A DNA stretch of 61,082 nucleotides, filler included, from Jimgerdemannia flammicorona (Eukaryota): the NCBI GenBank assembly GCA_003990765.1. It is 3 parts of 3 records of this genome, joined end to end, with 100 filler letters (N's around TTAATTAATTAA, not from the genome) between each part and the next. Parts side by side here need not be neighbours in the genome. Positions count along the whole stretch, not along the records: positions 1 to 20,300 come from RBNJ01001714.1; 2 more parts are not named here. The stretch is one strand, 5' to 3'. The notes under the pieces are model-generated. The model was not told the DNA's origin. It saw nothing but the letters and a program-made list of their open reading frames with translations, and ran no database searches. The position numbers were made by a program, and so were the translations under genes. The first letter of the stretch is position 1, and every line of letters starts with the position of its first letter. Positions 3,416 through 42,366 of this stretch are shown here, piece by piece.

Positions 3416-3800
3416 CGTGTATTCCTCTGCCACCTAAAAGGATGTAAGCTTGTGCAGACTTGGCAGACTTGGCACGAAGGGGGGGGGGGGTATCACAGCC
3501 GGGAATCCAAAATAAGATCAACTGTCGGGACCGAACACATCGGTTCAGTATAAGACGGGACTTTGATCATTGTTTCTCCAATTCAAGGCCACCTTCACAG
3601 GAGAACGATGGTGTGAATAAGTAATTTAATCCGCATATCCAGTCTTTGACACAGAACATAGAGCTAGAGGCACAAATTCTCATCAACTTCTATATTCCCC
3701 GGCGGCATTCATTCGAATTCAGGGATTCAAGGCCACCTTTCCGGCCTACTTTATGTAGGACGGAAGGGCTTCTTTGAATAATCCAACCTGAATAGCTATC

Positions 3801-5012
3801 ATGCGATTTTGTGGATTGCTAACATTACCTTTCGTTAGTTTATACCACGAGTGGAAGCATTTAATAGCTGTGTGCTACGAAGCCTTCCAACATCCTATCA
3901 ACCACAGCTCTATCTCGCACCGTTTAGCCAGAGGAACCTTAATATCGAATCTTCTAACAATGAAGAATTCCTTTCCGATCTCGATCTCAGTCCCTCTTGG
4001 AGCTCTACGCTCAGTTCTCTTCCTTTTTGACGTCAACGACCATATGAACGACGAGGGTACAAGCGCGCTCGATTCGTCCTCTGAAGGGTTCACATGCACC
4101 AACGCCATGCAACCTCCACCTGCCATCTTGTCAGAAGGTTCTCCGTGGGCCAACACAACTACCGCGTGCCAAAGGTTCTTCCTGGTCCAATACAAGGCGG
4201 CACGCGGCGATTGCATGGCGTTGGCCCACGAAGAACCTTTGGGCGAGGCGGCACGCGGTGGTTGCGTAGCGTTGACCCACGAGGAGCCTTCGGACGAGAT
4301 AGCACGCAGCGGTTGCGTGGAATTTGCGCACGAGAAGCCTTCGGGGGCCAACGCCACGCAACCGCCGCGTATCGCCTTGTTCGAAGGTTCTTCGGTCACA
4401 AATGCCACGCAACCGCCGCGTGTCGCCTCATCCGAAGGTTCCTCGTTGGGCAACGCCGCACAGCCACCGCATGCCACCTCGTCCGAAGGCTCTTCGGGTA
4501 CAAACGCCACGCAACCACCGCATGCTGTCTCTTGGGGGCCCAACGCCACGCATCCGCCACGTGCAGCCTCACCCGAAGATCCTTTGTGCGTCAACGTTAC
4601 GCCAGTGCTGCCTGCAGTGTTCGCCTCCCAGAGCGCCCCAATGTCCGTTCAAGCTGAAGACTGTCTTGAATGTTTGCGGAAAAGGAAACGAAAGAAAAAA
4701 CGATGTGTAATTCATGCCTTTGAGACACCGAGGAACAAGCCCGGGAAGGCGTGTGACGGATGCAAGTCCGACAAGAAAAAGTGCCTCCCCTCTGTTTCTC
4801 TTTTGGGTTGCCGACGCTATATCAAAGGTGGTAAACATTGCTCAATGGTTATGGCGAAAGCTGATAACGGGAGGGACCAGTCTCCTTCGGTCAAGTTTAA
4901 ATGTCCTCGTCACCACTTAGCTGGATCAAAGGATACAGATGGATCTGAGTCAGTTAGTAATAGTCATAGGGTTTTTAAATTTGTAAATGTCCAGGCAGGG
5001 ACGTATGAGTAA
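3801..5012 (+). pseudogene. Paralog of the Zn2Cys6 repeat gene, probably degenerate
   Basis: The fifth cluster Cys is Tyr (GCRRYIKGGKHC). The 5' homologous part is out of frame relative to copy 1. About 150 bp of the repeat array is inverted (~4190-4344). Confidence 0.65.
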
Positions 5013-5131
5013 TCGTAGTGACAGAACCTTTCTCGAAGCGTTTGTAGTCATATTTTTAATCCAATGGTCTTGCTAGCACAATATTGTATTTATTCTTCTC
5101 CTGTGTTATATTTCTTGTCCTTCCAGTGTAG

Positions 5132-5976: not shown

Positions 5977-6981
5977 TCAGTCTTTACTAGAGGGTAGTTT
6001 GTCCTCAGACTGTTCTTTAGTTATTATTGTAGTATTTAGAGCATCTTTTGCATCTATATCTATACCATTATCTTCTTTAGTATCTGAATCACTCTATTTT
6101 AGAGGCTCTTCTTCTTCTTTGGGGAACAGAACTTTGATATAATTGATAATACTTAGATAGATAGATTGAGTCATTCATTAAAAGTTATTTAGAGAGAACT
6201 GATATAAGCACACAATCTCCAAGCTACCAAAATTACATATTACTCTCAGAACAAATTCAGAAATCATATGTAAGATCATGAAGCTAAGTCAAACTAAAGT
6301 TACAGATCACAAAGCTGAGTCAACTTGAAGTTATAGAATACAAGACTTATGAAAACAAAACCTTATTAATCAGAACTGAAAGTATATATACTGAATATAT
6401 AGATATGTCAAAATAGAGAACTACAACAAACTAAACAAACAACTATAACTCTTAAATAAAAACCAAACATGACTACTGAAATCTACAACTATATCTATGC
6501 TGATATTTGGATTATTATTATCAACTGAGCAATAGCTTCTTTACTTCTTATGAATATCTATAGCCTAGCACCTCTCTATTTTGTAGAAGCCTGATAGAAT
6601 GCTCTGAATATACTTAGTGAGGTCTACTGAATTGAACAAATCTCAAGCTACTACTAGATCAGCTACCTTCTAGAAGATATGGTTAGCCATCACTATAATA
6701 TAGATATTATTAAAATGTCTCAATATCAGAAACTCATCACTCATAAATACTAAGAACTCTTCTACAAGTATAGTACCTTTATTCCCTATCTCTGAGTTAC
6801 TACTGCTGAAATAGTTGTTACTCTGTCCTATGACCAAATTGATGATATGGTATAAGAACTCAATTACAAGTATATTAAGTATATCCAAATTACAGACAGA
6901 TCCTTCCTGCACCCTAATGATTATATTCTACAAATACCCCAAGTTGGATATACCATAAAGAATATCTATGATATAATCTAG

Positions 6982-7457
6982 TATGATGGTACAGCTAAAT
7001 TTGGAAGAAGAAAATAGGGAATAGACACTTGATCGCACCCATTTCCAAAGTAGTATAGCCTTATAGTTAGCAGTCCTTGATTTTGACATTGTCTAAATTC
7101 TTAGACATTGTCTAAATTTTAGACATTATCCAAATCGGATATCCCGATTTAGTATAGCATTTAGACATTGTCCAAATGTTTCGACAAAGTCCAAATGACT
7201 CATTTATTACTTAGCCATCCTCTCATAGCTAGCAAACTTGTATAAATAACCCAGTATCTTCGAGTGAATAAACCTCAGATCGAAATAGTTCAAAGCAAAG
7301 AGATAGCAAAGGAACTAGTAAACCTGCGGGCAGATACACTTTGAACTCACCCACCCTCCCCTGCAACTTCAAGAGACTCTGCAAGAGTCAGAACAGTCAA
7401 GTTTTCAAGATACAGAAATCTGACATACTTTCAAGAGTAAGCGTCCACTATGTTATA
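6982..7457 (+). repeat. 5' LTR
   Basis: Near-identical to 13236-13711. TG..CA termini decayed to TA..TA. TATAAATA at ~7241 and AATAAA at ~7267. Confidence 0.95.
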
Positions 7458-7460
7458 ACT

Positions 7461-7477
7461 TGGTGCCCATTGGCTGG
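7461..7477 (+). promoter_or_regulatory. tRNA primer-binding site (tRNA identity not determined)
   Basis: TGGTGCCCATTGGCTGG 3 nt after the 5' LTR. Confidence 0.7.
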
Positions 7478-7571
7478 TGATTCAAGATGAATTCCTCACT
7501 TTCAAGCTGAACAACGAACAACCACCACTACCTAAACAACCATACAAACCAAGCCCCAATACCCAGATAAG

Positions 7572-10500
7572 ATGGATATGAGACTGCCAGTATTCCATAG
7601 ATATACCTCAGATGAATCAATCATTACCTTCATTGACAATTTCGAGCAGTATGCTGCTGTAAGGACTCTGACAGCAGCACAGCAAGTAGCCCTCATGCCC
7701 TTCAGTCTACGAGGCCCTGCCAGAGCAGCATTCACAGCTGCAACCTATGCAGGAAATGATGCTGATGCTGTACTGACAGCACAGAAGATCTGGCTCCGAA
7801 ATACATATTACACAGACAAGATCAAGCAAGCCCTGAAGGATCAGCTCAACACAACATGCCAAGGAATGAGCAAGGACCCAAACACATTCTATACCAGAAT
7901 TTGATATCAGATAATTCTTGCAGATTATGCTGCTGCTATCCAAGATCAAGTAGCCGAAGCAACCTTCATGAAAGGAGTCTATCCAGAAATAGCCATGGCC
8001 ATCTGCTCATCACTAGTGATTCTGGATCTGCCACAAAAGGTCACCTATACTCAGCAATACTGGATAGCCAGACACCCACAAGACCATACAATGGAGAGAG
8101 TTACAGGAGTCAGAATCAAGGCACCCAAGGCAACCAGTGTGATCCCCACCACAATGATCAATCGAAACACACCTCAGCCAAAAGCTACAGAACAGCAAAA
8201 GAACAGTGACACTATAGAGGAACTTGCCAAAAGGTTTGCTGAAATGACTGCCCACCTGGGAGATGTGGTAAAGGAAATCCAAGGAAGAGATCGCCGCCCT
8301 GTTCAGAAGTTTGCCACCACCTCAGACAAGAAGAAAGGTACCTGCTACAGCTGCGGAGAAGAAGACCACTACTCCTATAAATGTATGAGTGAAACCAAAC
8401 ACAAGGCTCAACCAAGCAATGCCACACAAAACAAGGAGCAGGCCAATACAATCACCTTTGAAGAAATCGGAGAATCTGATGAAGAGGAATGGGAGGCCTA
8501 TCCTGCTCAGACCACCAAGAAGGATGCTCGCAAAGAACCCTACAAGAGACTGCCAGGAAGACCTAAGAAGAACCCAGTGGAAAAGCAGATGGAAACTGAT
8601 ACAGAAAGCCAAGCTGAAGAGATGGACCAGGATATCGAGCTGGAGCAAGCAGTTCAAGATATCATCTGAGGAACCACTCCAGCCAGTGAAGGAGAAAAAG
8701 AAAAGAAGCTTTGCAAGATCAAGACCTTCAAGTATGATATCTTCAAGGATCTCAGTCAACAAAAGGTCAATGCAACCTTTGGTCAGCTCGCAGAAATCCC
8801 AACATTCAGACAGCAAATGAGGTTTGGACTTGCCGAAACAACCAAGGAACAAGGATGGAAGATAACCAAGACCAATAATGTTCAAGAGGACTCAGGAGAA
8901 GAAAGTGAGGACAATCGCAAAACCTCTGCTTATGCAACATGCCAAATCAAAGATAGAATCTTTGAAGCCATCATTGACACAGGAGCAGGAGGATGTCTCC
9001 TCAGTAAGAAGGCAGCAGACCACCTAGGTTGGGATGTGGAAGAAGCAACTAAGCTAGTATTCATCACAGCCGATGGCACAAGAGCCACACCTCTGGGAAA
9101 GATCCGAGATGTTCCCATCAAGATCGGAGGAGCAACAATCCCAGATATAATCGTAACCAATGCCACCAACTATGACATCCTCATCGGTAATCAATGGCTT
9201 CACAAAGCCAAGGCAGTAATCAATCTCAATGCCCAGAAGATGCAAATCACCTACCAGGGACAGAAGATATGAATTCCCATCAACGTCAACAAAGGAGTCC
9301 TGCTCAATATGGAGGAAGAAGAGAGTGAGTAAGAGGAAGCTTATATGGTAACTACTCCAAAGAAGAAGAAAGTTAGATGGATGAGTGAAGAAGAATGGTG
9401 CAAGAAGATTGCCGAAGGCTATGCCCCACAAGGAGTCTGTCCTTATAGAATCAAGATGTACTGTATAGAGCATGTCAATGATTGCTACCAGTGCACCATC
9501 AGAACCAAGAAGATCTACCAGGAAAGGAGGCAGAAAGCTCTTGAAAAACAGATCAGGGAGGAAGAGAAGGAGGAAGATGATGAACCACCAGCCCTCCTGG
9601 AGGACAGTGATGATAAAGAAGAAATCAAGGTCAAGATTCGAAAGATCCACCCTGATGCAGTCTTGCCAGAATACAAGTCAGAAAATGCAGCCGGAATAGA
9701 CATCACTATAGTAGAAGAAACTGTACTGGAACCCCAGACAACCACCCTACTCGCAACTGGACTGAAGATGACCATCCCAAAGGATCATGTCGGGATTCTC
9801 AAGACAAGAAGCAGCCTGGCTAGAAGCAAAATCACAATTGAAAGAGGAGTCATTGATTCAGACTATACTGGAGAAATTCTACTCATTGCTAGGAACCACA
9901 ATCCTACAATTCCATTCCCAGTCAAGAAGAAGGACCGATTGGCACAGATGTTGATCTTCCCAATCATATAGCCAAGGATCATAGAAGTCAAGAATCTGGA
10001 GGAAATGAAAAGAGGAAAGAAAGGATTCGGATCCACAGGAAGAGGAGTATTCACCAGCACCAAGATTACTGAACTCAAGCATAAGAAGGATGAAAATATG
10101 AGTAAGCACAGTTACACCATTGGAGATGAATTCTCACTCAAGGAGGAACTCAAGAAAATACTCCACAAATTCGAGGATGTCCTTGCCACAGATTTCAAGG
10201 ATATCAAGGGAAAAACCCCACACTACTATTATGAGGTAGATACCAGAGACACTGAACCAATTTATCAGAAGGCAAGACCTGTCCCACCAGCCTACTGAGA
10301 ATGGCTCAGAGAAGAAATCAAGCAGATAGAAGAAGCCAGTATCATCAAAGAAGCCAGCAGCCCCTGGTCTTCACCAGTTATACTAGCCCCAAAAAAAGGA
10401 AGCAAACCTGGAGAATTTGCCCCAAGGCTCTGTATCGACTATAGAAAGCTCAATGCAGTTACCAAGAAGGATCATCAACCACTACCACTCATCAGTGACA

Positions 10501-11561
10501 TCCTTATAATACTGGGAGATGAAGCACAGTACTACAGCACCCTGGACTTATACTCAGGATTCCACCAAATCGGACTCACAGAAGTGGCAAGTGAAAAGTC
10601 AGCCTTCATCACCCCAGACGGAACCTACATCTACCTACGAATACCATTCGGAATGTGCAATGCACCAGCAAGCTTTCAGCAAATGATGAAAAAAATCTTC
10701 CGCTATGACATGGGAAGATAGATGATAGTCTATGTCAATGATATAATCATCTACAGCAAGACACCTGAGGAACATCTGCAGCATATACAGCAGATAATGG
10801 AGAGACTAAGACAACATGGCCTTTATATCAAACCCAAGAAGTGCAAGTTTGCGGAAATCGAGATCTCCTATCTTGGCCATATTATCAATCAAGATAGAAC
10901 ACACATGGACCCCCTCAAAATACAAGCAGTAGCAGCATACCCAAGGCCCACTACTGTTACAGAAGCCCAAGCCTTCATGAGACTCGCCTCCTACTATCGC
11001 AGTTTTATTAGAGGATTCTCCAACATCGCAGGTCCAATCTACGAACTCAACAAGAAGGATACCAAGTTCCAGTGGACTGGTAGACAATAAGAAGCATTTG
11101 ATGAACTCAAGGTCAGACTAACTCAGGCACCCATCCTCAGACAACCCAATTGGACCCAAGAATTTATCCTTCAGATAGATGCAAGTGCACAGGGACTAGG
11201 AGCAGTCCTAGCTCAAAAAGAAGACAAAAAAGAGTATGTCATTGCATATCTTAGCTGCGGAACCTGAGGAGCTGAAAAAGAATATGAGTCCTACAAGTTG
11301 GAATGCCTTGTAGTCATCTGGGCTGTGGAAAAGTTCCACTACTACCTGGCCAGAAGACACTTCACCATCCAGACGGACCACTCAGCTCTCACCTAGCTAC
11401 TGACAACTGGACAACCCAAGGGAATCTATGCCAGATGGATAATGAAGTTACAAGCCTATGATGTAACCATCGTACACTGCCCTGGAAGAACAAATTCCAA
11501 TGCAGATGCTCTCTCACAGACACCTCGAACTATCTCCAACCAACAAATCAATCATGAATAA
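7572..11561 (+). pseudogene. gag-pol: gag-protease-dUTPase-RT-RNaseH polyprotein in one frame with premature stops
   Basis: Zinc knuckle CYSCGEEDHYSYKC; protease IIDTGAG; dUTPase GVIDSDYTGEI and RGKKGFGSTG; RT RLCIDYRKLN, PFGMCNAP, YVND; RNaseH DAS..GLGAVL and NADALS. All ORF-track pieces share one frame. Confidence 0.95.
9621..10045 (+). pseudogene. dut: Trimeric dUTPase domain within pol
   Basis: Motifs AAGIDI, RSSLA, GVIDSDYTGEI, DRLAQM, RGKKGFGSTG. Confidence 0.92.
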
Positions 11562-12747
11562 GGAGCTCTACTACGGAATTATCACATACCTGGGACAGCA
11601 AAAGATGCCCCAACATCTGGAAGAATGGACACAAATGATTATCAATAGGACATGGAAACAATTCAAAACCAACGGAGAAACACTAAAGAAAGAAAAACTA
11701 CTAGTCATACCAGAACACAAGAAGGAGCAAGTGATGAAATCAGTACATGAACTTGGCCATCTAGGAGGAATGAATACATACGACAAGGCAAGAAGAATAA
11801 TATGGTGGCCAGGGATGGAGGAAGATATCAGACAATTTGTCAAGACATGTGACAAATGCCAGAAACAGAAACAAGACCAACGGAATCAAGCCCCAGGATC
11901 AGCACACATAGAACCAGTACCATTTGCCCATATAGCAATAGATGTAATCGGCCCTCTACCCTTGACCCTGACTGGTAACCGATACATCATTGTCATCATA
12001 GACCTTTTTACGAAGTGGATAGAAGCAGGACCTCTCAAGAAAGCCAATGCACAGTCAGTTGCCGATTTCTTCTACAAGGAAATCATCTGCTGGTTCAAGA
12101 CCCCAACACAAGTAACTACAGACAGAGGAACAGAATTCGTGAACCAGCTCTTTGAGGTTCTCTACAAGAAGTACAAGATCCAGCACATTCGGACCACAGC
12201 CTATCACCCCCAAGGAAATAGACAAGTAGAAAGGACTAACAAAACCCTCAAGAATGTTATCACCAAGATCTGTGATAACTATGAGAACTGAGATCACTAT
12301 CTGCCAATAGCATTATCTGCTCTCTGGGATATCCGATCACAAAGTACCCACTTTACCCCTCGAGAAATGCTGTTTGGAGAAGAATGTTCTCAAGGAACCC
12401 TATCATCTAATGGAGATACTGTATGGAAACATATGGACATGGAAATACGGAGACTACACCAAATCAGGAAGAAGGCTGAGGATTACATAACCAAGGTGCA
12501 GACACTACAATGGAGGAATGCGGAAAAGACCCACAAGCTCTTAGAGATTATCAAGATAGGAGACAAAGTCCTAGTGTATCAGAATATGGTAGAAGCTTCA
12601 TGGTCATGAAAACTGGAGCCCAAGTGGGAAGGACCTTACCTTGTGCAAGATATAAAAGGGACCACCTTTTGGCTATGAAAACCCTCAGGCACAATAATCC
12701 CCACCACTGTTCACCAAAACCAACTTAAGAAATATCATGGCCAGTAA
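11554..12747 (+). pseudogene. Integrase (HHCC + DDE core + GPY), in a different frame from RT-RH
   Basis: HELGH...CDKCQ, IAIDVIGP, TDRGTEF, HPQGNRQVERTN, KLEPKWEGPY. Its ATG overlaps the RH stop. Confidence 0.92.
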
Positions 12748-13198
12748 CAAAAGTACTGCAATGGCACTCAAGATCACTAGTGCTGCCCAAAGAGCCATTG
12801 AAAGACAATGGCACACTACCGAGCCTCTAACCATAGAGCCATACTATGAGGATATTCAGAGTATTGTACAGACTCATCTCTCTTGAATCTCATACTTTAG
12901 AGCCTATCAATATCGGGCAGAATTCCAAGAGTACTTCAAGCTTGGACAGGTGCTCAATCAGGATCCAGCAAAGACCAAGGAGGACTGGATTGCTGAGTGT
13001 CAACTCTCTCACTCACAGATCACTATTGCCAAAAGGATCCACAAGTTATTCTGAGAAGATGAAGCAGCAATAGACTATCTGAGAGGAGTAACCCCTACCA
13101 ACTTTGAGAAAGTGAGAAGACATCATTAGGAAACAGTCATGCAGCAAATTGCACAGTACAAGACCATACAGACTGTTGAAGCCTGGGAGTTTGAATAG
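12737..13198 (+). pseudogene. Accessory ORF3 of unknown function between integrase and the 3' LTR (three stops, one frameshift)
   Basis: Manual translation MASNKSTAMALK...EYFKLGQVL...QITIAKRIHKLF*EDEAAIDYLRGVTPTNF...WEFE*. Homologous to 42367-43143. Confidence 0.7.
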
Positions 13199-13225
13199 AC
13201 GCCTCAAGGATGAGACCATCTATTC

Positions 13226-13234
13226 AGGAGGAAG
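13226..13234 (+). promoter_or_regulatory. Polypurine tract
   Basis: AGGAGGAAG one base before the 3' LTR. Confidence 0.75.
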
Positions 13235-13235
13235 T

Positions 13236-13711
13236 TGTGATGGTACAGCCAAATTTGGAAGAAGGAAATAGGGAATAGACACTTGATTGCACCCATTCCC
13301 AAAGTAGTATAGCCTTATAGTTAGCAGTCCTCGATTTCGACATTGTCTAAATTCTTAGACATTGTCTAAATTTTAGACATTATCCAAATCAGATACCTCG
13401 ATTTAGTATAGTATTTAGATATTGTCCAAATGTTTCGACAAAGTCCAAATAACTCATTTATTACTTAGCCACCCTCTCATAGCTAGCAAACTTGTATAAA
13501 TAACCCAGTATCTTTGAGTGAATAAACCTCAGATCGAAATAGTTCAAAGCAAAGAGATAGCAAAGGAACTAGTAAGCCTGTGGGCAGATACACTTTGAAC
13601 TCACCCACCCTCCCCTGCAATTTCAAGAGACTCTGCGAGAGTCAGAACAGTCAAGTTTTCAAGATACAGAAATCCAACATACTTTCAAGAGTAAGCGTCT
13701 GCTATGTTACA
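13236..13711 (+). repeat. 3' LTR
   Basis: TGTGATGG...TGTTACA; matches the 5' LTR. Confidence 0.95.
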
Positions 13712-15008
13712 CTAGTTTGATAATAATGAAGTAAAAGATAATAATCTCTCTGATACTGATATGACCTTCAGCCAAGGATCCCTATCAACCTTGATCACTC
13801 TGTCAATCTTACCAATGAACTTACAATAGTTTTTAACTATCTACAAGATCTATTGAGATAACAACCACTAGTATAAATACTAATCTACATTTATATCCAA
13901 TTACTTCAACTACAATGAAGAGACTGAAGAACATAATCTATATCTTCAGATAATTCTTAAGATTGAATCAATAACCTCATCTTTCAAGTATAAATAAAAT
14001 TAACTACAGCTACTAGTATACTATAACTCTATAATATATAGTACTATTATCTACCAAAGATATATAGACAGCAAATCTGATAAAAGTAAAGATAATGTAC
14101 TCTTTCTTCATTCATCAATACTCTATATAGTATATGAGACAGATAATATTATCCTGTAAGATAGTGATATAGTTCTAATCTACTACTATATAAATGAACA
14201 GAAAAATATAATTTAAGAATCACTCTTCCTAAATAACTACATTATTAAAGATGATATCATTGATGGTGACCTCATTGAAGAATATCCAGATAGTATCTAA
14301 ATCTATAGATCACTTAGCAGTCATTAATATAGTTAGATTGGCCTTACACTATATAATTACATACTAACTCAGCAGTCAGATAATCTCTTAATATATTAGT
14401 TCATAACTTATACTATATAACTATATTCTAATTTATCAAAGTACTAAGTACTATATCTATATTTAGTATAGTCCAGATAGCCTCTCATTAGTATAAATAC
14501 CCACTCCTCTAAATCTCAGAAACTTAGATACAGATAGACTTAAATAGATAAAAGCAGCCCAGAACTCCAGAATACTTCTCTATACAAATATCTCTTAATA
14601 TACTACTCTTAGTATAGCAATATCATGAATAGCAAATAAACCTATTTGATAACTCACAAACTACTCTTAAGTAAATCTATACTATATTAGATCTCACTCC
14701 TAACTAAATCTCAAAATTTTCTAATTAAGTATTATCTGCAGTGATACATATACCAATTCAACTAAGCTGGTCTTAGTTTCTTAAACTTTCTGAAATATGA
14801 AAAATTCTGAACATTTAGAATAAGTCTGAAAAAGAACTTTAGTTAAGACATTATTCTGATCTTAAAATCAATAAGTGTAGAGGGTGTACTCTATATGAAA
14901 TTGATCTTGATCTTAAGAAAACAGTCTTTTAAAACATCTAGAACTTTTTGAAAAATTCTTCCAAAACTATATAATAGTATTATAATAAAGTAACCCTCTT
15001 ATAACTGA

Positions 15009-16925: not shown

Positions 16926-18794
16926 TATAAGAGAGTAATTTATCAGAGTACTGTTATATAGTTCTGGAAAAGGTTTCTAGAAGTTCTGGATATTCTAAAA
17001 GACTGTTTTCTTAAGGTTAAGATCAATTTCACATAGAGTATATTCTCTATACTTATTGATTTCAAGATTAGATTAATGTCTTAACCTAAAGCCCTTTCTT
17101 GGACTTATTCTAGATATTCAAGATTTTTCTTATTTTAGAAAGTTCAAGAAACTAGATTAGTTTAGTTGAATTGATATATTACTACAGATAATATTTAATT
17201 AGGAAATTTCTGAATTTAGTTAGAAGTGAGACCTAATATAATATGAGTTTACTTAAGAGTAGTTTGTGGGTTATTAAATAGGTCTATTCACTATTCATGA
17301 TATTACTATTAGCTAATACTAGGAGTAGTGTGTAAAAGGATAATTGTGTAGAGAAGTGTTTATCTGATTCTTATCAGTATTCTTATCTGAGTTTCTGAGA
17401 TCTAAGAGAGATAGTATTTATATGTACTAATGAGAGACTATCTGGATACTCTTTGATGAGATTATTATTGATAATATTATTCCTGATAAAGTAGTCATCT
17501 AGAAAGAGTGGTTCTTGGATTATATCTTCTTATTCATTTATATAATAGTATGTTAGAATAAAGTTGTTATCCTACAAGATAATATCATCTGTCTTATATA
17601 CTGGATATAGTGTTGATTGATAGAGAAGAGATATATTATCTTTACTTTTATCAGATTTGCTATTAGTATACCTTCAGTAGGTTATGGTACTATATGTTAC
17701 AGATTGTAGTAAGCTGGTAGTTGTTCTTCATATCACTCATATTCAGAAGGTAGGGTTATTGATTTTATCTCAAGAGTTGTCTGGAGATATTGGTTATATT
17801 CTCCTATTTCTTCATTATAGTTAAAGTAGTTGGGTGTAAATACAGATTAGTACTTATACTAGTAATCATTACTCCAATAAGTCTTATAGATAGTTATGAA
17901 CTATTATAAGTTTATTAGTAAGACTGGTAAAATAATTAGAATTAATAGAGATTCTTGAATAGAGATTATATTAGTATCAGAAGAGTTATTATCTTCTGCT
18001 TCATCATTGTTGAACTAAATTATATTATAGATATCCTTAATAGTATATCTCATTTGAGATATTTGCAGGATATAGTTATCTGAGTATAGAAAGAACCTGT
18101 CTGTAGTTTGGACATACTTGATATATTTCTAGTTGAGTTCTTACACTATATTATTAATTTGGATATAGGTCAGAGTAGTAACTATTTCAGTAGTAGTAAC
18201 TTAGAGGTAGGGAATAAAGATGCTATACTTATAAAAGAGTTCTCAGTATTTATATAATGAGCTTCTAGTATTGAGACATTTTAGTAATATCTATATCATA
18301 GTAGTAGTTAACTATATCTTCCAGAAGGTAGCCAATCTGATATATAGTAGCTTGAGATTTGTCTAATTCAGTATACTTTACTAAATATGTTCAAGACATT
18401 CTATCAGACTTCTATAAAATAGAGAGATGCTAAGCTATGGATATTTATGAGAGACAGAGGTACTATGGTCCAGTTGATAATAGTATTCCAAATATCAGTA
18501 TAGATACAGTTGTAGACTTTAGTAATCATGTCTGGTTATATGTTTAAGAGTTATAGTTATTATTTGGTTTATTATAGTTCTCTATTTTATCATACTGTAT
18601 GCTTGGTATATATACTTTTGGTCCTGATTGATAAGGTTCTGTTTTTATATATCTTGTATTTTATAACTTTGAGTTGACTTAGCTTTATAATTTGTGACTT
18701 CAATTTGACTCAGCTTTGTAATCTTATATATGATTTCCAGATTTATTCTGAGGGTGATGTGTGATTTCAGTAGCTTAGAGATTGTATACTTATA
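16926..18794 (-). mobile_element. Solo-LTR-like unit, copy 2
   Basis: TATAAG...CTTATA termini, 5-bp TSD TTCTC (16921-16925 / 18795-18799), collinear with copy 1. Confidence 0.8.
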
Positions 18795-20400: not shown

Positions 20401-20947
20401 AAGGTTTCTTAGCACTCCTTGGTCCATTCGAATTTAGTCTCCTTCTTCAGTAGCTCATAGATAGGTGCTGCAATGTTGGAGTATCCTTTGATGAATCTTC
20501 TGTAGTAGCTGGCCAGTCCAAGGAAGGTATGGACTTCTGTGGTTATTCTAGGTCTTGGGTAGGCTGCAACAGCCTTGATCTTCATGGGATCTGTGTGGAT
20601 TCCAGTCTGATTGATGAGGTGTCCTAGGTAGGTGATTTCTTGAGCTGCAAACTTGCATTTCTTGGACTTGATGTAGAGGCCATGCTCCTTGAGCCTCTTG
20701 AGGGCTAGCTGTATGTGATTGATATATTCTCATGTAGTATTGCTGAAGATGATCACATCATCAATATAGACAAAGAGCCATTTTCCAATCTCATTGCTGA
20801 AGACTCTGTTCATCATTCGCTGGAAACTTGCTGGGGCATTGCACATTCCAAATGGCATTCGCAGATAGATGTAGGTGGCATCAGGTGTGATGAAGGCTGA
20901 TTTCTCACTGGTATCTTGAGTGAGACCAATCTGATGGAAGCCTGAGA
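20401..20947 (-). pseudogene. Ty3/gypsy RT fragment, related to the 6982 element and interrupted by the Penelope-like dimer
   Basis: Minus strand FSGFHQIGL...MPFGMCNAPASFQRMM...VYIDDVIIFS...FLGLASYYRRFIKGYS. Confidence 0.92.
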
Positions 20948-21450
20948 AGAGGAGGAAGAAGGCCCAGCGGGAGCCAAGGGAGCAAACCCAGAGCCAGTGT
21001 CAAAGCAAATAGAAGACATGTGGAAGAGCGTGTATAAGGGGGACGAACAAAGAATGTAACCGAAAATGCATCAGCCATTTATTGCCATGTAAAAATGCAG
21101 TCCTTATATACAAAATATGACGTCCCAAAAGGGAGGATGCGCCACAACTCGGGGTGAACCGAATTAGGAATCACATGACCGCCAGAGATAGGCAAAGATA
21201 AAGGGGGAGCCAATCTCAGTTGCAGGATAAAAATCACAAACAAACACAAACAAAACAAATCCAAATCGAGATTAAAAAACATCTGCAGACCCCGGAAGGG
21301 TGAGCGCGAGCGAGGGGTGAGGCCAAAATAGAGTGAGCCACAGTGAGCCTGAGCAAAGCAAGGGGCCGAAGGCAGCGGAGGGGAGCGGAGTAAGGCCGAG
21401 ACCCCGGAGCGAGCCCGAGACCCCGGAGGGGGCAAGGATGTTTTTTAATC
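20948..21450 (-). repeat. PLE pseudo-LTR (3' terminal repeat, left arm)
   Basis: Reverse complement of 24917-25419 and 28575-29075. Confidence 0.9.
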
Positions 21451-23518
21451 CTCTCTGGCAGAACCGGAGGTACCAGAAGGTGACGAAAATGCAAAACAAG
21501 AGCGATGGATTGAAGAAGAAACAGAAGGAAGACGCGAACGAGCAATCAGAGGGCATCGGGAAAGAGATGAAAGTCCATGGCGTGAAAGAGAAGAGCGCAG
21601 GATGGTATCAGGGCATTGAGCAACCCAGCAAGCATGATCAAATGGTATGACAAGAATCGGGGGTAGGAAAGAAGAGGGGGTATGGAGAGGGTAAGGGGGG
21701 AGAGAGGGAAGGGAGGGGAGGTAAAGGAGAGAGAGTAGGGAAGAGCAAACAACAGACCATTCAACAGAAGCAAGCAGATCGCAAATGATAGAAATAGGGT
21801 AGGCACGATGATGAACCATGAAGTTGCCAAGAACCCAAACTGCAGACACCCAATCAGAATGACGGGAGCAGCATAATACAAGACAACAAGCCTCACCATG
21901 AACACATTCAAGAAGAGTGCAATGAGGATGGTTGGACAAGAAGTTAGGGAACTGTTGGGAACGGGGAAAACGGGAATAAACAACAGTTCAGAAAGGAGAA
22001 AGAGAAATAGAAAGGTCCAAAAAGGGAATACTAGTCGTACCGCACACCCAAGTAATAGAATGATGGGGAGGGTAGACACCCAGGAACACACTAGGGATAT
22101 CAATGCCAGCAACAGCGAAGACAATAAAGTTATCAATATATCGGCAAAAGAAGACATCCCCAGCCTGGAACGCAATGGAAAGAGGTGAAGTAATATCACG
22201 TAACGCATGCAATTCATGGGCCAGGCCAACGAGGTTGGCAAGGGTGGGGGCACAATTCATATCCATGGCAATACCAGAAGTCTGGTGGAAGGAGCCAAGG
22301 GCCGACTCAAAATAATTAGAGCTGCAGACGAGGAGCATAAGCTCAACAATGGAAGCCAGCGAAACTGGGGAATCCAAAGGAAAAACCAAGGAACCCAAGA
22401 AGCGAAGGCAGTCATCGATCTCATCAAAACGAATAGCAGTATAGAAGGAAGAGAAGTCACCAGAGGCCAAATGGGAAAAACGGTGAACAGGCACAATGGT
22501 GGAGCAGAGAAGGGTGAGCTCCTGAGTATCATGAAGAATAGTATACTCAGGCCCAAGATGGTGTTGTAAGAGAGCCATCTAGGAGAGAAAGAAGTGGGAT
22601 AACCACTTCGAAATCTCGGTAGTAGGAGAACTATAAGCAGCTGTAATAGGATGCCAAGCCAAAATAGGCTTGTGAACTTTAGGAAGAGCATAGAAAACCA
22701 GAAAAGAAATATCCAGAGAGGACAAAGAGTCTTGGAAGAAGTTAAAAATGGGGTTCACGAATGGGGAATCCGAAAGCGATCTAGCGCGAGCCAGAGAAAC
22801 CCGAAGAAGAGTGAGAACCTCATCCAATCCAAGAGCACTAGGCTCGTAAGCCATGGCTCGAAGGAGGGCAGAAAGGCCATCAAGGTAGAGCAACTTAGGA
22901 ATAAGTGCAAAACCTTGATTCTTATCAGTGACTGTGAGTAAATGCATAGGCAATTGCTTGACCAATTTAAGTGCAGTATGCATGGCATAGTCCGAAACCA
23001 AGCAAGAGTGAGCTCATCCGGAAATGGACAGTGAGTAAGCCATGTCGAGGAATATGCAGTATGGGAGGGGGGACCCAATCACTAGGAACAAAATAGCGAG
23101 AGGGCATCTCACTATGATCTTGAAAGAAAATGGCAAGGTTAAGAGCATGATGAAAACGTATTAGATAAGCTGGATCAGTGAAGGAGAATTGTGAGAGAGT
23201 CGCAGGAAAAACAAAGTGAGGACCCAAGGATAAGGCAAAGACTTGAAGGGGAGAAAGGGGGCAGTCAGCCAAAGAAAAAGGAGGAGACAAAAGTGTTCCA
23301 AGAGAAGAATAAACCCAAAAGTTCGGAACAAGCAACTGGGAAAGGCGAAGGGGGGACAACATGAGGAACCACTCAGGGCACACCAGAAGTGACGACGGAA
23401 TCCGAGAAGGGACGGGGACACCAGGGGAGAACCACGCTAGGGAGAAGTTTAAGAGCAGGAGGCCTTCCCCTTCCCTCTGACTTTTTTTGAAGGTGGCAAA
23501 CTCAACGAATGAGAGCAC
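21445..23518 (-). pseudogene. PLE reverse transcriptase ORF2, left arm (11-bp deletion near 23060 plus stops)
   Basis: TDKNQG, FYALPKVHKP..WHPI, SGDFSSFYTAI, QTSGIAM, YIDNF, IPFLDL, SNHP. Confidence 0.88.
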
Positions 23519-24666
23519 ACTCCGTCAGAGTGCCAGACCTTGCGGCCACAGACTTTCGTGCAGCCCTTACATTCAGGAGCACGGGGAGAGGAGGCGGAGG
23601 AGGAACCGGCAGAGGAGGCCGAAGGTGAGCAAGCAGCCGAAGGAGCAGCAGTGCGAGGAACACCACCATGAGGACAGACAGACTTGGCCGGGTGCCAGTA
23701 GGCATGGTGGAGGCAACCAGAGCAGACAGCACAAGGCCAGGCCCTGACAGGGTGAGAACCAAGTTGGCGGCCACGCTTGGGGGCAGGGGGAACAGAGGAG
23801 GAAGCCTTGGTGGGGGAGGGAGACCAGGAAGAGGCCGACAAAGCCTGATTGGGCTTAGCAGGGGTCTTGGTGGGGGTCTTGGAGGGGGTCTTGGTGGCAG
23901 CAGCAGCGAAGGAACGAACCTCAGCATGAGCAGCAGCACGAGCTTCGGCACGAATGGCCTTGGAGACTGAAACCTTGGGGGAGGCAGGCAGAGGAGCAGT
24001 AGCGGCAGCGTGAGCAGCAGCAGCAGCACGTGACATTTCCTGCTTGTGAAGGTGAGTGACAAAAGAGGTGCCAGCGAGGAGGAAGTGATACACAGCATCG
24101 ATGTCGGCGGCAATAGAAGGAACGTCCTGGATGGCGAAGCCACAGAAGGGGGTGGCATCCGAAAGATGAGAGGAGGTGAAGGCCATGAAAGCGGCATAGA
24201 CACATTGGAAGGAGGTGGAGGCGGCAGCGGCAGAAGCAGCGGCGGCATCAGCGGTGGCAAGTTTGGCAGTGGCAGTGGTGGCACAAACCTCTTCAGAGAG
24301 GGCTTGGCGGCGGGCCTCAGGGAGAATGGAGTAGCAGATGGCGGGTGGAGTGATGACGTCGATGTCATGGCAGAGATGAGCCTCCTTGGCAGAGAGGGCA
24401 AGAACTGACTGGAACTGGGAGAGGAGCGGACAACCAGAGGGATGAAGGTCCAGGGGGAGGGAAAGGATGGCGGATGAGACATAAGACTCGAACGAGACAG
24501 TGGCAGGGGTAAAGGCAGAGGGAGGGGGAGGAGGAAGTTCCTCATCCATGAGCTCGTCGACGAGGACAGAGGCCCTGAGGGCAGGCGGTACAGCAGAGGA
24601 GGAAGAAGGCCCAGTGGGAGCCAAGGGAGCGAACCCAGAGCCAATGTCAAAGTGAACAGAAGACAT
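23449..24666 (-). CDS. PLE ORF1, left arm (405 aa from the homologous ATG)
   Basis: Open frame highly similar to 25348-26565. Confidence 0.85.
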   Translation of the reverse strand: MSSVHFDIGSGFAPLAPTGPSSSSAVPPALRASVLVDELMDEELPPPPPSAFTPATVSFESYVSSAILSLPLDLHPSGCPLLSQFQSVLALSAKEAHLCHDIDVITPPAICYSILPEARRQALSEEVCATTATAKLATADAAAASAAAASTSFQCVYAAFMAFTSSHLSDATPFCGFAIQDVPSIAADIDAVYHFLLAGTSFVTHLHKQEMSRAAAAAHAAATAPLPASPKVSVSKAIRAEARAAAHAEVRSFAAAATKTPSKTPTKTPAKPNQALSASSWSPSPTKASSSVPPAPKRGRQLGSHPVRAWPCAVCSGCLHHAYWHPAKSVCPHGGVPRTAAPSAACSPSASSAGSSSASSPRAPECKGCTKVCGRKVWHSDGVCSHSLSLPPSKKVRGKGKASCS

Positions 24667-24916
24667 GTGGAAGAGCATGTATAAGGGGGATGAATAAAGA
24701 ACGTAACCGAAAATACATCAGCCGTTTATTGCCATGTAAAAATGCGGTCCTTATATACAAAATACGATATCCCAAAAGGGAGGATGCACTACAACTTGGG
24801 GCGAACCGAATTAGGAACCACATGACCACCGGAGATAGGCAGAGATAAAGGGGGAGCCAATCTCAGTTGCAGGATAAAAATCACAAACAAACACAAACAA
24901 AACAAATCCAAATCAA

Positions 24917-25419
24917 GATTAAAAAACATCCTTGCCCCCTCTGGGGTCTCATGCTCGCTCCAGGGTCTCGGCCTTACTCCACTCCCCTCCACTGCCTTCG
25001 GCCCCTTGCTTTGCTCGGGCTCGCTGCGGCTCGCTCTGTTTTGGCCTCACCCCTTGCTCATGCTCACCCCTCCGGAGTCTGCGGATGTTTTTTAATCTCG
25101 ATTTGGATTTGTTTTGTTTGTGTTTGTTTGTGATTTTTATCCTGCAACTGAGATTGGCTCCCCCTTTATCTCTGCCTATCTCCAGCAGTCATGTGGTTCC
25201 TAATTCGGTTCACCCTGAGTTGTGGCGCATCCTCCCTTTTGGGACGTCATATTTTGTATATAAGGACCACGTTTTTACATGGCAATAAATGGCTGATGCA
25301 TTTTCGGTTATGTTCTTTGTTCATCCCCCTTATATACGCTCTTCCACATGTCTTCCGTTCGCTTTGACACTGGCTCTGGGTTCGCTCCCTTAGCTCCCGC
25401 TGGGCCTTCTTCCTCCTCT
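24917..25419 (+). repeat. PLE pseudo-LTR (5' copy, central), starting with a hairpin that is the symmetry axis
   Basis: GATTAAAAAACATCC (24917-24931) pairs with GGATGTTTTTTAATC (25083-25097). TATATAA at ~25257 and AATAAA at ~25284. The repeat extends into the first ~24 codons of ORF1. Confidence 0.9.
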
Positions 25420-26565
25420 GCTGTACCGCCTGCCCTCGGGGCCTCTGTTCTCGTCGATGAGCTCATGGATGAGGAACTTCCTCCTCCCCCTCCCCCTGCC
25501 TTTACCCCCGCCACTGTCTCATTTGAGTCTTACATCTTGTCTGTCATCCTTTCCCTCCCCCTGGACCTTCGTCCCTCTGGTCGTCTGCTCCTCTCCCAGT
25601 TCCGGTTGGTTCTTGCCCTCTCTGCCAAGGAGGCTCGTCTCCGCCATGATGTTGATGTCATCGCTCTGCCCACTGTCTGCTACTCTATTCTCCCTGAGGC
25701 CCGCTGCCAAGCCCTCTCTGAAGAGGTTCATGCTGCCACTGCCACTGCCAAACTCACCACCACTGATGCTGCTGCTGCTTCTGCCACTGCCACCTCCACC
25801 TCCTTCCAACGTGCCTGTGCCACTTTCATGGCCTTTGCCTCCTCTCGTCTTTCGGATGCTGCCCCCTTCTGTGGCTTCGCCATCCAGGATGTTCCTTCTG
25901 TCGCTGCCGACATCGATGCTGTGCATCGCTTCCTCCTTGCTGGCACCTCTTTTGTCACTCGCCTTCATGAGCAGGAAACGTCACGTGCTGCCGCTGCTGC
26001 TCGCACCACCGCTACTGCTCCTCTGTCTGCCTCCCCCAAGGTTTCGGTCTCCGAGGCCATTCATGCTGAAGCTCATGCTGCTGCTCATGCTGAGGTTCAT
26101 TCCTTCGCCACTGCTGCTGCCAAGGCCCCCTCCAAGACCCCTGCCAAGACCCCTGCTAAGCCCAATCAGGCTTCGTCGGCCTCTTCCCGGTCCCCCTCCC
26201 CTGCCAAGGCTTCCTCCTCCATTCCCCCTGCCCCCAAGCATGGCCGCCAACCTAGTTCTCACTCTGTCAGGGCCTGGCCTTACGCTGTCTGCTCCGGTTG
26301 CCTCCACCATGCCTACTGGCACCCGGCCAAGTCCATCTGTCCTCATGGTGGTGTTCCTCATGCTGCTGCTCCTTCGGCTGCTCGCTCGCCTTCGGCCTCC
26401 TCCACCGGTTCCTCCTCCGCCTCCTCTCCCCGTGCCCCTGAATGTAAGGGCTACACGAAAGCCTGTGGCCACAAGGTCTGGCACTCTGACGGGGTGTGCT
26501 CTCATTCGTCGAGTTTGTCACCTTCAAAAAAAGTCAGAGGGAAGGGGAAGGCCTCCCACTCTTAA
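25348..26565 (+). CDS. PLE ORF1, right arm (405 aa): Ala-rich helical segments and two Cys/His motifs
   Basis: ATG start and intact frame in both arms. Motifs CAVCSGCLHHAYWHPAKSVC and CKGCTKVCGRKVWHSDGVC (left-arm spelling). Confidence 0.85.
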   Translation: MSSVRFDTGSGFAPLAPAGPSSSSAVPPALGASVLVDELMDEELPPPPPPAFTPATVSFESYILSVILSLPLDLRPSGRLLLSQFRLVLALSAKEARLRHDVDVIALPTVCYSILPEARCQALSEEVHAATATAKLTTTDAAAASATATSTSFQRACATFMAFASSRLSDAAPFCGFAIQDVPSVAADIDAVHRFLLAGTSFVTRLHEQETSRAAAAARTTATAPLSASPKVSVSEAIHAEAHAAAHAEVHSFATAAAKAPSKTPAKTPAKPNQASSASSRSPSPAKASSSIPPAPKHGRQPSSHSVRAWPYAVCSGCLHHAYWHPAKSICPHGGVPHAAAPSAARSPSASSTGSSSASSPRAPECKGYTKACGHKVWHSDGVCSHSSSLSPSKKVRGKGKASHS

Positions 26566-28580
26566 ACTTCCCCCTGGCATAGTTCTCCCCCAATGTCCCC
26601 GTCTCTTCTCAGATTCTGTTGTCACTTCTGGTGTACCCTGAGTGGTTCCTCATGTTGTCCCCCCTTCGCCTTTCTCAGTTGCTTGTCCCGAACTTTCGGG
26701 TTTATTCTTCTCTTGGAACACTTTTGTCTCCTCCTTTTTCTTCGGCTGACTGCCCCCTTTCTCCCCTTCAAGTCTTTACCTTATCCTTGAGTCCTCGCTT
26801 TGTTTTTCCTGTGACTCCCTCACAATTCTCCTTCACTGATCTGGCTCATCTAACACATTTTCGTCGTGCTCTTGACCTTGCTATTTTCTTTCAAGATCAT
26901 GGTGAGATGCCCTCTCGCTATTTTGTTCCTAGCGATTGGGTCCCCCCTCCCAATGTCTCTTCACACTGTATATTCCTCGACATGGCTTGCTCGCTGTCCG
27001 TTCCCAGATGAGCTCACTCTTGCTTGGTTTCAGATCATTCCATGTGTACCATGCTTAAATCGGTCAAGCAATTGCCTATGCATTTGCTCACAGTCACTGA
27101 TAAGAATCAAGGTTTTGCACTTATTCCTAAGTTGCTCTACCTTGATGGCCTTTCTGCCCTCCTTCGAGCCACGGCTTATGAGCCTAGTGCTCTTGGATTG
27201 GATGAGGTTCTAACTCTTCTTCAGGTTTCTCTGGCTCGTGCTAGATCACTTTTGGATTCCCCATTCGCGAACCCCATTTTTAACTTCTTCCAGGACTCTT
27301 TGTCCTTCCCGGATATTTCTCTTCCAGTTTTCTATGCTCTTCCTAAAGTTTACAAGCCTATTTTGGCTTGGCGTCCTATTACGGCTGCTTATAGTTCTCC
27401 TACCACCGAGATTTCGAAGTGGTTATCCCACTTCTTTCTCTCCTGGATGGCTCTCTTATAACACTGTCTTGGGCCTGAGTATACTATTCTTCGTGATACT
27501 CAGGAGCTCGCCCTTCTCTGCTCCACCATTGTACCTGTTCACCATTTTTCCCATTTGACCTCTGGTGACTTCTCTTCCTTCTATACTGCTATTCGTTTTG
27601 ATGAGATCGATGACTGCCTTCGCTTCTTGGGTTCCTTGGTTTTTCCTTTGGATTCCCCGGTTTCACTGGCTTCCATTGTTGAGCTTACGCTCCTCGTCTG
27701 TGGCTCTAATTATTTTGAGTCAGCCCTTGGCTCCTTCCACCAGACTTCTGGTATTGCCATGGGTATGAATTGTGCCCCCACCCTTGCCAACCTCGTTGGC
27801 CTGGCCCATGAATTGCATACGTTACATGATATTACTTCACCTCTTTCCATTGCATTCCAGGCTAGAGATGTCTTCTTTCGCCGATACATTGATAACTTTA
27901 TTGTCTTCGCTGTTGCTGGTATTGATATCTCTAGTGTGTTCCTTGGTGTCTACCCTCCCCATCATTCTATTACTTGGGTGTGCGGTATGACTAGTATTCC
28001 CTTTTTGGACCTTTCCATTTCTCTTTCTCCTTTCCGAACTGTTGTTTATTCCCGTTTTCCCCATTCCCAACAGTTCCCTGACTTCTTGTCCAACCATCCT
28101 CATCGCACTCTTCTTGAATGTGTTCGTGGTGAGGCTTGTCGTCTTGCATTATGCTGCTCCCATTGTTCTGATTGGGTGTCTGCTGTTCGGGTTCTTGGCA
28201 ACTTCATGGTCCATCATCATGTCTACCCTATTTCTATCATTCGCGATCTGCTTGCTTCTGTTGAATGGTCTGTTGTTTGCTCTTCCCTACTCTCTCCCCT
28301 TTACCCCCCCTCCCTTCTCTCTCTCCCCTCTTACCCTCTCTGTACCCCCTCTTCTTTCCCACCCCCAATTCTCATCGTACCATTTGATCATACTCACTGG
28401 GTCACTCAATGCCCTGATACCATCCTGCGCTCTTCTCTTTCACACCATGGACTTTCATCTCTTTCCCGATGCCCTCTGATTGCTCATTCGCATCTTCCTT
28501 CTGTTTCTTCTTCAATCCATCACTCTCATTTTGCATTTTCGTCACCTTCTGATGCCTCCGGTTCTGCCAGAGAGGATTAA
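26496..28580 (+). pseudogene. PLE reverse transcriptase ORF2, right arm; single frame, three premature stops, no GIY-YIG endonuclease
   Basis: VTDKNQG, FYALPKVYKP..WRPI, GDFSSFYTAI, NYFE..FHQTSGIAMGMNCAPTLANL, RRYIDNF, IPFLDL, SNHP are PLE-RT motifs. The C-terminus is short and Ser/Pro-rich. Confidence 0.9.
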
Positions 28581-29075
28581 AAAACATCCTTGCCCCCTCC
28601 AGGATCTTGTACTCACTCTGGGGTCTCGGCCTTACTCCACTCCCCTCCGCTGCCTTCGGCCCCTCGCTTCGCTCAGGCTCACTGCGGCTCACTCTGTTTT
28701 GGCCTCACCCCTTGCTCACACTCACCCCGGAGGGGTCTGCAGATGTTTTTTAATCTCGATTTGGATTTGTTTTATTTGTGTTTGTTTGTGATTTTTATCC
28801 TGCAACTGGGATTGGCTCCCCCTTTATCTCTGCCTATCTCTGGCGGTCATGTAGTTCCTAATTCAGTTCACCCCAAGTTGTGGTGCATCCTCCCTTTTGG
28901 GACATCATATTTTGTATATAAGGACCGCGTTTTTATATGGCAATAAATGGCTGATGTATTTTCAGTTACGTTCTTTATTTGTCCCCCTTATACATGCTCT
29001 TCCATATGTCTTCCGTTCGCTTTGACACTGGCTCTGGGTTCGCTCTCTTGGCTCCCACTAGGCCTTCTTCCTCCT
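28575..29075 (+). repeat. PLE pseudo-LTR (3' terminal repeat, right arm)
   Basis: Direct repeat of 24917-25417, ending at GGCCTTCTTCCTCCT. Confidence 0.9.
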
Positions 29076-34335: not shown

Positions 34336-34479
34336 TCAATTCTTTGCTCTATTTTTTTTTTTTTTTTTTTTTATAGTTGCTTGGACTCCCTTTCTTTATT
34401 AATACCCATCTATTCCATATAATTACAATGATCCCACCCCCTATCCAATCCCCCTAGGGGGGCCCCCCTCCCCCTACCC

Positions 34480-37400: not shown

Positions 37401-38100
37401 CCTGCCCCAACAGTCCCCAGTGATCAGACCATGGGCACCACTCTACTTCCAATGCCCTCCAAACATCCGAACTCCAGCACTCCACCATCAGAATCCAGTC
37501 AATCCTTGTACCCAGGCCATTCACCCAATACATGTAAACCCTGGTGTCACCCCACCTTGTTCTGTCTATATCCCCCAAGGAGCTTAATGTCTCCACCTCC
37601 TCCCATGCATCCAGACCTCCACTTCTACCCCTGGCACTCCTCCCTCCATCAGTTCTGTCCAGATGCTGATCCCGAACCATATTAAAGTCTCCACCAAGAA
37701 CATCGACCCCTTCCTCCAAGAGAATATCCTCCTCCAGCAATCCCCTAATCCATGCAATCCTCTCACCCCTAGCCGCAGGGCAGTAGCAAGAGCCCACCTT
37801 CACCAATTCCCACCCTGACTGATGCCAATCTCCCCAGACCAAGCAATCGCCCCAGCTCCTGATTTCCCCCAAGTCTCCTCTGTCCTTCCTCACCAGAATT
37901 GCTACCTTTCCAAACCAAGCAGCAGCTCCCCCCCACTCCCTAGTCCACTCTGCCCAATCATTCTCATCCTTACATTGAACATCCTGCAGTAAAAAGAGAT
38001 CAGCCTCCAATCCCTTGAGCCAAGTAAAAATGTTCCTACATCACCCAGATCCCCTTAGCCCATTCACATTCAAGGAAAAAATGTTGGTTGTACTGTTCAT
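34480..38100 (-). pseudogene. LINE ORF2: APE endonuclease, RT and C-terminal CCHC
   Basis: MNSTTNIFSLNVNGL, GGDFN, RIDW, SDHW; WRPIMLLD, QRGFVRGR, FLDQEKAY, GVPQGDPLS, AFADD; CEKC...EHWLGEC. Confidence 0.9.
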
Positions 38101-38132
38101 AAAGAATAATGATATATATCAGAGCCCATCCT

Positions 38133-42350: not shown

Positions 42351-42366
42351 CTAATGGGCAGTACTT

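Follow-up and report, generated by a model that had tools for sequence, protein, structure and literature searches.

We find that ORF3, a small open reading frame carried by LTR retrotransposons of Jimgerdemannia flammicorona, is a real, undescribed accessory gene family. The first-pass annotation had proposed an ORF3 shared by at least three LTR-retrotransposon families; we extend this to at least five, here called A, B, C, D and G. The window analyzed is a stretch of 61,082 nucleotides made of three joined contigs, of which positions 1-20,300 come from RBNJ01001714.1. It contains a complete but decayed setting of the gene in family A and degraded homologues from families B and C.

A family A Ty3 element carries ORF3 behind integrase

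The family A element occupies window positions 6982-13711 and is organized as follows.

6982-7457, plus strand: 5′ LTR (from LTR comparison), after the CTAG target-site duplication at 6978-6981
7572-12747, plus strand: gag (zinc knuckle), protease, dUTPase, reverse transcriptase (RT), RNase H and integrase without chromodomain, decayed (Pfam)
12737-13198, plus strand: ORF3, 153 codons (translation; stop-free copies elsewhere in the genome)
12914-13150, plus strand: conserved core of ORF3, ~aa 60-138 (alignment and model)
13221-13235, plus strand: purine-rich, polypurine tract (PPT)-like stretch after the ORF3 stop and before the 3′ LTR
13236-13711, plus strand: 3′ LTR, followed by CTAG

This is a decayed Ty3/gypsy element, with two TG..CA-type LTRs that are 95% identical, a CTAG duplication and the order gag-protease-RT-RNase H-integrase; the ends of the 5′ LTR of this copy have mutated to TA..TA. 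Protease and RNase H were recognized by eye and the other pol domains by Pfam, with rve and Integrase_H2C2 preceding ORF3. As first annotated, the frame following integrase encodes EYFKLGQVL...QITIAKRIHKLF*...AIDYLRGVTPTNF. Its ATG overlaps the integrase stop by 11 nt in a different frame, and it ends immediately 5′ of the PPT. The conserved core comprises a YxIG helix and a putative helix-turn-helix (HTH, aa 81-105), together with a pair of short helices and the first part of the final helix. The window copy is dead, with three stops at codons 50, 106 and 131 (positions 12884, 13052 and 13127); 28 of the 56 distinct ORF3 copies collected have no stop. In a genome search with family A ORF3, 150 of 2,432 candidates were scored (candidate numbers, not copy numbers), all of them at 90% identity or above.

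The dUTPase of the family A element (window 9630-10049) sits between protease and RT and is at most 42% identical to bacterial dUTPases, the set searched. Loci of families B, C and D likewise have a dUTPase-like segment 5′ of RT. Among the genome loci read, several dUTPase-bearing Ty3 families thus carry ORF3. The family A element, with its CTAG duplication, itself interrupts the ORF carried by a family C solo LTR (window 6205-15001), splitting it at about codon 170.

In four families the homologue lies inside the LTR

The homologues of families B and C in the window are located within LTRs.

41093-43146, minus strand: family B LTR, 5′-truncated (LTR match; the full natural copy, in locus L098, is 2,456 bp)
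42367-43143, minus strand: family B homologue within this LTR, a truncated core domain plus a long acidic tail
6205-6978, plus strand: family C solo LTR, first part, with a decayed ORF at 6469-6978, split by the family A insertion
13716-15001, plus strand: continuation of this family C solo LTR beyond the insertion
16928-18776, minus strand: decayed family C LTR with an ORF remnant at 17712-18529
57019-59782, minus strand: decayed, interrupted family C LTR with an ORF remnant at 58831-59571

The family B frame holds the words first quoted for it. The LTR match in the window stops at 43146, that is, at LTR base 418, so that this ORF is 5′-truncated; intact copies extend ~100 codons further upstream. 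Several decayed non-LTR elements (endonuclease plus RT) lie at window 34340-53700, and one of them apparently truncates the LTR at 43146. We infer that the B unit is an LTR from its TG..CA ends and 4-bp duplication in L098, from the pol and purine tract that precede it at other loci, and from the TATA box and AATAAA motif found towards its 3′ end; no whole two-LTR copy was seen. Most of the non-PPT 5′ flanks of family B LTRs (L034-L055) end in ATAT, CTAT, ATAG or CTAG, so that the family may prefer AT-rich 4-mers as targets.

The decayed “2-kb units” of the first-pass annotation are 2,064-bp repeats that start with TGTAAG and end with CTTACA. One of them (in L070) is flanked by a perfect 5-bp duplication, the PBS-like ACTTGGTAGCAG follows several others, and an integrase with chromodomain precedes further copies; we therefore assign them as LTRs of a chromovirus, family C, whose ORF begins ~290 nt inside the LTR. 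The protein string originally given for these units proved to be a composite of copies. Its IGHLL and QHQKL are found at about 59383 and 59320 on the minus strand and its FIPYL*VTTAE at 6778 on the plus strand, while the literal YY.IGH does not occur in the window. With that correction, all three quoted motif sets are present in the sequence.

Two further LTR-borne families, D and G, emerged from profile searches of fetched loci. In the B, C, D and G LTRs the ORF is upstream of the main TATA box and therefore lies in U3. The gene thus directly precedes the PPT in family A and directly follows it in the other four, and the env position originally assigned to it holds for family A only. In the genomic RNA, the ORF would occupy the same place in B, C, D and G as in A, with only its position relative to the PPT differing. 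Solo LTRs with a whole ORF are common among the loci read. Chromodomains are found by Pfam in the C and G integrases, separate from ORF3. The family G LTR (L174, minus strand) has near-identical GTATAAATACCC boxes at LTR bases 144 and 1364, the first ~70 nt before the ORF and the second at the usual place.

The window also contains two ~4-kb elements with ~500-bp direct repeats, which form an inverted, head-to-head pair of 92% identity (20945-29075) that includes a weak RT match at 27462-28577. In a long ORF at 724-2508, a 51-nt repeat occurs ~12 times and Zn2Cys6 is matched at the cut-off (E 3e-4); a related copy is present at 3792-5123, and both are possibly element-borne.

ORF3 proteins are homologous and under purifying selection

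Profile comparison, set beforehand as the test of homology, separates the ORF3 proteins from both shuffled and reversed decoys. With HMMs built leaving out one of six groups at a time, every member of the missing group was recovered at 28-69 bits, compared with at most 13.0 bits for shuffles and 16 bits for reversed sequences. Family C is the weakest group, its three proteins scoring 28-34 bits with the profile built without C (shuffles at most 13.0, reversed decoys at most 7.2). Family G stands outside this test and is tied in by its 41% core identity to D. Among the non-self tblastn matches of A in the window, the B ORF ranks first (27% identity over 74 aa, E 5.5e-4), and the pairwise A-B profile comparison agrees (P 77%, E 2e-5); the pairwise A-C and B-C profiles are unsupportive (P ~2%, E 0.02-0.03). 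The alignment spans ~140 residues across seven sequence groups, with the L098 ORF3 omitted because of its stops.

ORF3 is under purifying selection, in line with the protein-level conservation first noticed. The subfamilies A1 (46 copies) and A2 (8 copies) are 20% apart in DNA, and their ORF3 dN/dS is 0.18 (bootstrap 0.12-0.28), far from the value near 1 that would have spoken against the gene. For comparison, the integrase C-terminus gives 0.32 (35 and 5 copies) and shifted ORF3 frames give 1.8-2.0. Third codon positions hold 41 of the 62 fixed A1-A2 differences (p 1.3e-7). Within-family values (A1 0.25, B 0.41, C 0.34, D 0.33) are biased low because the copies were chosen as best protein matches and are not relied on; the private-mutation baseline (N/S 65/60) shares this bias. 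ORF3 thus qualifies as an additional ORF, being an extra frame besides gag-pol under purifying selection, with its presence in most copies judged from loci picked by ORF matches.

Relatives outside the genome were found only among metagenome proteins, 8 of them close and 16 with a wider profile. Two distant types, P0012 and P0013, are among 6 matches. A 1.5-kb contig carries the P0013 type immediately after an integrase. Relative to the integrase tail, its ATG occupies the codon position found in family A, although the two ORF3 proteins are only ~23% identical. An insect repeat protein (P0011, E 2.4e-5) was rejected as a repeat-driven match. Since the searches were word-limited or the profile shallow, this range of genome and metagenome fragments is a lower bound.

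ORF3 has likely moved between retrotransposon lineages

The relationships of the ORF3 proteins do not follow those of their host elements. By RT, A and D are 67% identical, B is further away (42%), and the chromoviruses C and G are 33-39% identical to the others. In the ORF3 tree, D groups with B and G (support 96/97), D being 41% identical to G and 14% to A. Overall, core identity between families is 14-41% for ORF3 and 33-67% for RT. Monophyly of A and D in the ORF3 tree is rejected (AU p 0.004) and that of C and G is not (p 0.061), in a test that involves long branches and a constraint chosen after the tree was inspected. Given this conflict between the trees, the gene was likely passed from lineage to lineage, with chromoviruses among them.

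A 260-nt stretch lying between integrase stop and 3′ LTR is 80% identical (E 2e-60) between the non-chromovirus family B (L106:4191-4447) and chromovirus G (matching stretch of L174, minus strand), whose RTs are only 33% identical. We read it as an independent sign of 3′-end exchange; it would be a module exchanged recently, perhaps a small ORF or a structured RNA.

The predicted fold offers a lead to a helix-turn-helix

The AlphaFold model of ORF3 has eight helices (pLDDT 83), so that the protein is predicted to be all-helical, as the small helical protein first envisaged. The maximum 19-residue Kyte-Doolittle mean is 0.03-0.90 in 20 of 20 sequences; this agrees with the lack of a transmembrane segment first noted, and with no hydrophobic segment ORF3 falls outside the env and env-like class. 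A chromodomain (PF00385, a beta-barrel) is likewise rejected, given the all-helical model and the negative Pfam search. No described domain was matched: hmmscan gives no Pfam match for the family, PDB no sequence match (best E 1.5), and PHROGs no credible family (best E 0.023), while phage tblastn gives E 2-3 and IMG/VR nothing confirmed. ESM Atlas matches are mostly unnamed bacterial clusters at 0.92-0.95.

The conserved columns have a mostly hydrophobic pattern with invariant Ala and Gly and one always-basic position, at ~aa 100, basic in 9 of 9 family representatives; no obvious catalytic set is apparent among them. The core is not basic overall (pI 4.1-8.8). The tails are acidic in all 8 proteins examined (D+E 18-38%, K+R 0-8%), exceeding 100 aa in B, C and D and reaching only 13-15 aa in A and P0016. 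Such acidic, aromatic tails may act as activation domains.

Structural searches returned no significant match, with no Foldseek E below 0.001 in any search. In BFVD (50 rows shown), DUF3102 proteins are among the highest probabilities (0.69 and 0.44, alongside an unnamed row at 0.44; E 0.9-2.2). VIA rows restricted to residues 60-153 include the DNA-binding cores of VirB, SopB and ParB (Z 3.1-3.7, rmsd 4.6-5.5, 75-86 aligned), and the best VIA Z scores, 4.2 and 5.4, are to unrelated proteins. Foldseek against PDB and a second VIA look gave generic helical bundles only, and the lists for a core-only model of lower confidence (pLDDT 67) lack the DUF3102 and ParB rows. The homodimer prediction scored 0.26, against a mark of 0.32, and speaks neither for nor against a dimer.

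Profile alignment points in the same direction. The ORF3 family aligned with 16 DUF3102 sequences gives P 76% and a score of 35.1 (60 block shuffles: at most 22.6), with a pairwise E of 2.2e-5, which becomes ~0.5 over 24,736 families and is thus not significant at Pfam scale. Without family A, P is 74%; for family A alone, it is 0.6%. DUF3102 against the ParB HTH gives P 73%, and ORF3 against the ParB HTH directly P 0.14%. The DUF1016_N / YhcG N-terminal domain (PF17761) gives P 0.8%, from only 3 sequences. Hmmscan finds no DUF3102 (PF11300; cut-off 24.4 bits) match at E up to 10 in any of 20 members, and the Pfam DUF3102 search of the genome gave 0 candidates.

ORF3 shares with DUF3102 and the ParB-type HTH (PF17762; VirB, SopB, ParB) the helix order and the pattern “(I/Y)EIG..L ... 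A..I..LF”. It differs from them in its extra N-terminal helices, its acidic tails and the lack of a ParB CTPase domain, and it scores below the family cut-offs. We therefore take the DUF3102/ParB-like helix-turn-helix in the ORF3 core as a weak but convergent lead, not as membership.

Candidate cis elements of family A

Two kinds of motif near family A ORF3 may be relevant to its expression and action.

13335-13449, plus strand: five imperfect 17-bp palindromes, first copy TTTCGACATTGTCTAAA, in the family A U3 upstream of the TATA box at 13495
12651-12658, plus strand: TATAAAAG within the sequence coding for integrase, 86 nt 5′ of the ORF3 ATG

Four to five palindromic sites are present in 33 of the 34 A1 copies with readable U3, counted with search patterns drawn from the same copies. 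The top 12-mer of the family A U3 occurs 5 times, versus at most 3 times in 12 shuffles. Every site in A2 has other inner bases, while the outer TTTnG...CnAAA frame is mostly kept; between A1 and A2 the array is more diverged (73% identity) than its flanks (86-88%), with only 3 A2 copies available. The putative recognition helix differs between A1 and A2 at one residue (H92/Y92), and both copies of the intermediate A3 combine Y92 with A1-type sites. The near-identical helix, the differing palindromes and the A3 pairing together give no sign of co-variation between site and protein. No repeat array above shuffles was found in the 260 nt before the TATA box of B, C, D or G. The family A U3 palindromes are candidate binding sites of ORF3, and a host factor could equally be their binder.

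A TATAAAA lies 86 nt upstream of the ORF3 ATG in 40 of 44 A1, 4 of 8 A2 and 2 of 2 A3 copies. In family D, with its LTR-borne ORF, ATC codons stand at this position in 8 of 9 matches, and the metagenomic locus L176 is also without TATAAAA. We take this as a weak hint of a possible internal promoter for family A ORF3 at TATAAAAG; the alternative is reinitiation at the overlapped stop. Rfam gives no match in window 12300-13750.

Possible functions of ORF3

Among the three functions first proposed (anti-silencing factor, transactivator and targeting factor), a transactivator fits best, judging from sequence and model. Our preferred reading, held tentatively and at somewhat less than an even chance, is that ORF3 is a self-encoded HTH-type transcription activator of the element's own LTR. 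By binding the LTR of its own element, the small product would switch on or protect transcription, with the core (aa 60-138) serving as a DUF3102/ParB-like helix-turn-helix and the acidic, aromatic tail as an activation domain. In family A, the U3 palindromes would be its binding sites. Its translation would depend on an internal promoter, or on reinitiation at the integrase stop that the ORF overlaps, and recombination at the element's 3′ end would carry the gene from one lineage to another. A broader version appears doubtful to us: that fungal Ty3 elements, chromoviruses included, trade a sequence-specific activator derived from a bacterial or phage DUF3102/ParB-like HTH, which, being U3-borne, would let solo LTRs activate families in trans.

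Copies decay mainly at CpG, with C>T changes at 0.236 per site and copy versus 0.013-0.043 in other contexts, which suggests methylation pressure. ORF3 might then protect its element against DNA methylation or small-RNA silencing by the host, not as a classical activator but by attaching to chromatin or to a host silencing protein, in a VANC-like manner, and its fast divergence between families, together with its exchange between lineages, would suit such a role. We nevertheless consider this unlikely: no similarity to VANC or another known domain was found, and the low dN/dS is not arms-race-like within the range measured. Anti-silencing and activation can overlap.

That ORF3 helps export or package unspliced genomic RNA by binding it, like CERV of Cer1 or retroviral Rev, is quite unlikely in our judgment. 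Such a role is held by a small non-enzymatic accessory protein of a C. elegans LTR retrotransposon (PMC10309623), and the invariably basic column at ~aa 100 would be compatible with it; ORF3 lacks an arginine-rich stretch, however, its tails are acidic, and no Rfam element lies near it.

In family A and in the unrelated metagenomic element L176, ORF3 is coupled to the integrase stop at an identical codon position; this, with the apparent preference of family B for AT-rich tetramers, could instead point to an integration-targeting factor or integrase cofactor carried in the particle. This is improbable. ORF3 forms an ORF of its own, with no integrase fusion among the loci read, a chromodomain is already present in the integrases of families C and G, and in four families the gene is in U3, far from pol; the first two of these points also make the targeting factor of the first-pass annotation less likely.

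Solo LTRs with a whole ORF, and the second TATA-like box before the ORF in the family G LTR, would be expected if ORF3 controlled copy number or served competition between elements, as a repressor or restriction factor possibly made from solo LTRs. We rate this as very improbable, the acidic tails suggesting activation and not repression. An env-like or movement protein, for which the env position in family A would speak, or a non-functional ORF, is largely excluded and scarcely credible, given no hydrophobic segment, the dN/dS of 0.18 and the ~140-aa homology across seven groups.

Relation to known systems and significance

Accessory genes at the 3′ end that overlap U3 or lie within it are familiar from foamy-virus Tas/Bel1, HIV nef and MMTV sag, and foamy-virus Tas, which has an internal promoter, is a DNA-binding transactivator that the virus itself encodes. 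ORF3 resembles these genes in its 3′-end location, overlapping or in U3. Its hosts are, in contrast, Ty3 elements, chromoviruses included, and the searches run detected no sequence or fold relationship.

That LTR retrotransposons can carry extra ORFs after pol is already known. In plant elements, additional ORFs in sense orientation (aORF-3S, env-like) follow pol and precede the 3′ LTR; aORFs are described in the internal region, and Boty is named as a fungal antisense example (PMC7264820). Like the plant aORF-3S so described, ORF3 is an extra conserved sense ORF after pol, in most copies of a family; unlike them, it has no transmembrane segment, lies inside the LTR in 4 of 5 families and gave no sequence match. 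The internal location between pol and the 3′ LTR is shared by family A and L176, and not by B, C, D and G.

Also known are ORF3 types common to dUTPase-bearing lineages. In bdelloid rotifers, the ORF3 of dUTPase-bearing LTR retrotransposons is env, a GDSL esterase or a DEDDy exonuclease (PMC5408684). The likeness lies in dUTPase-bearing LTR families with types common to unrelated lineages, and the difference in that ORF3 here is small, non-enzymatic and helical, without Pfam match. A nuclear accessory protein in an LTR retrotransposon is known as well: CERV of C. elegans Cer1 is a novel nuclear protein made from a spliced mRNA that exports genomic RNA (PMC10309623), similar to ORF3 by description as an accessory protein of an LTR retrotransposon. 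For Arabidopsis elements, accessory and anti-silencing proteins are mentioned (PMC13547354). The literature searched, at the level of listings and abstract openings, holds no description of the ORF3 family.

LTR retrotransposons are usually thought to depend on host transcription factors, and their LTRs are treated as non-coding. The candidate protein and its candidate sites are both short and amenable to in vitro work. If our reading is correct, a selected, LTR-borne gene exchanged between chromoviruses and non-chromoviruses would bring to these elements the regulatory logic of complex retroviruses. Such a gene would survive in solo LTRs, and could help explain how these elements filled a 231-Mb genome despite CpG decay.
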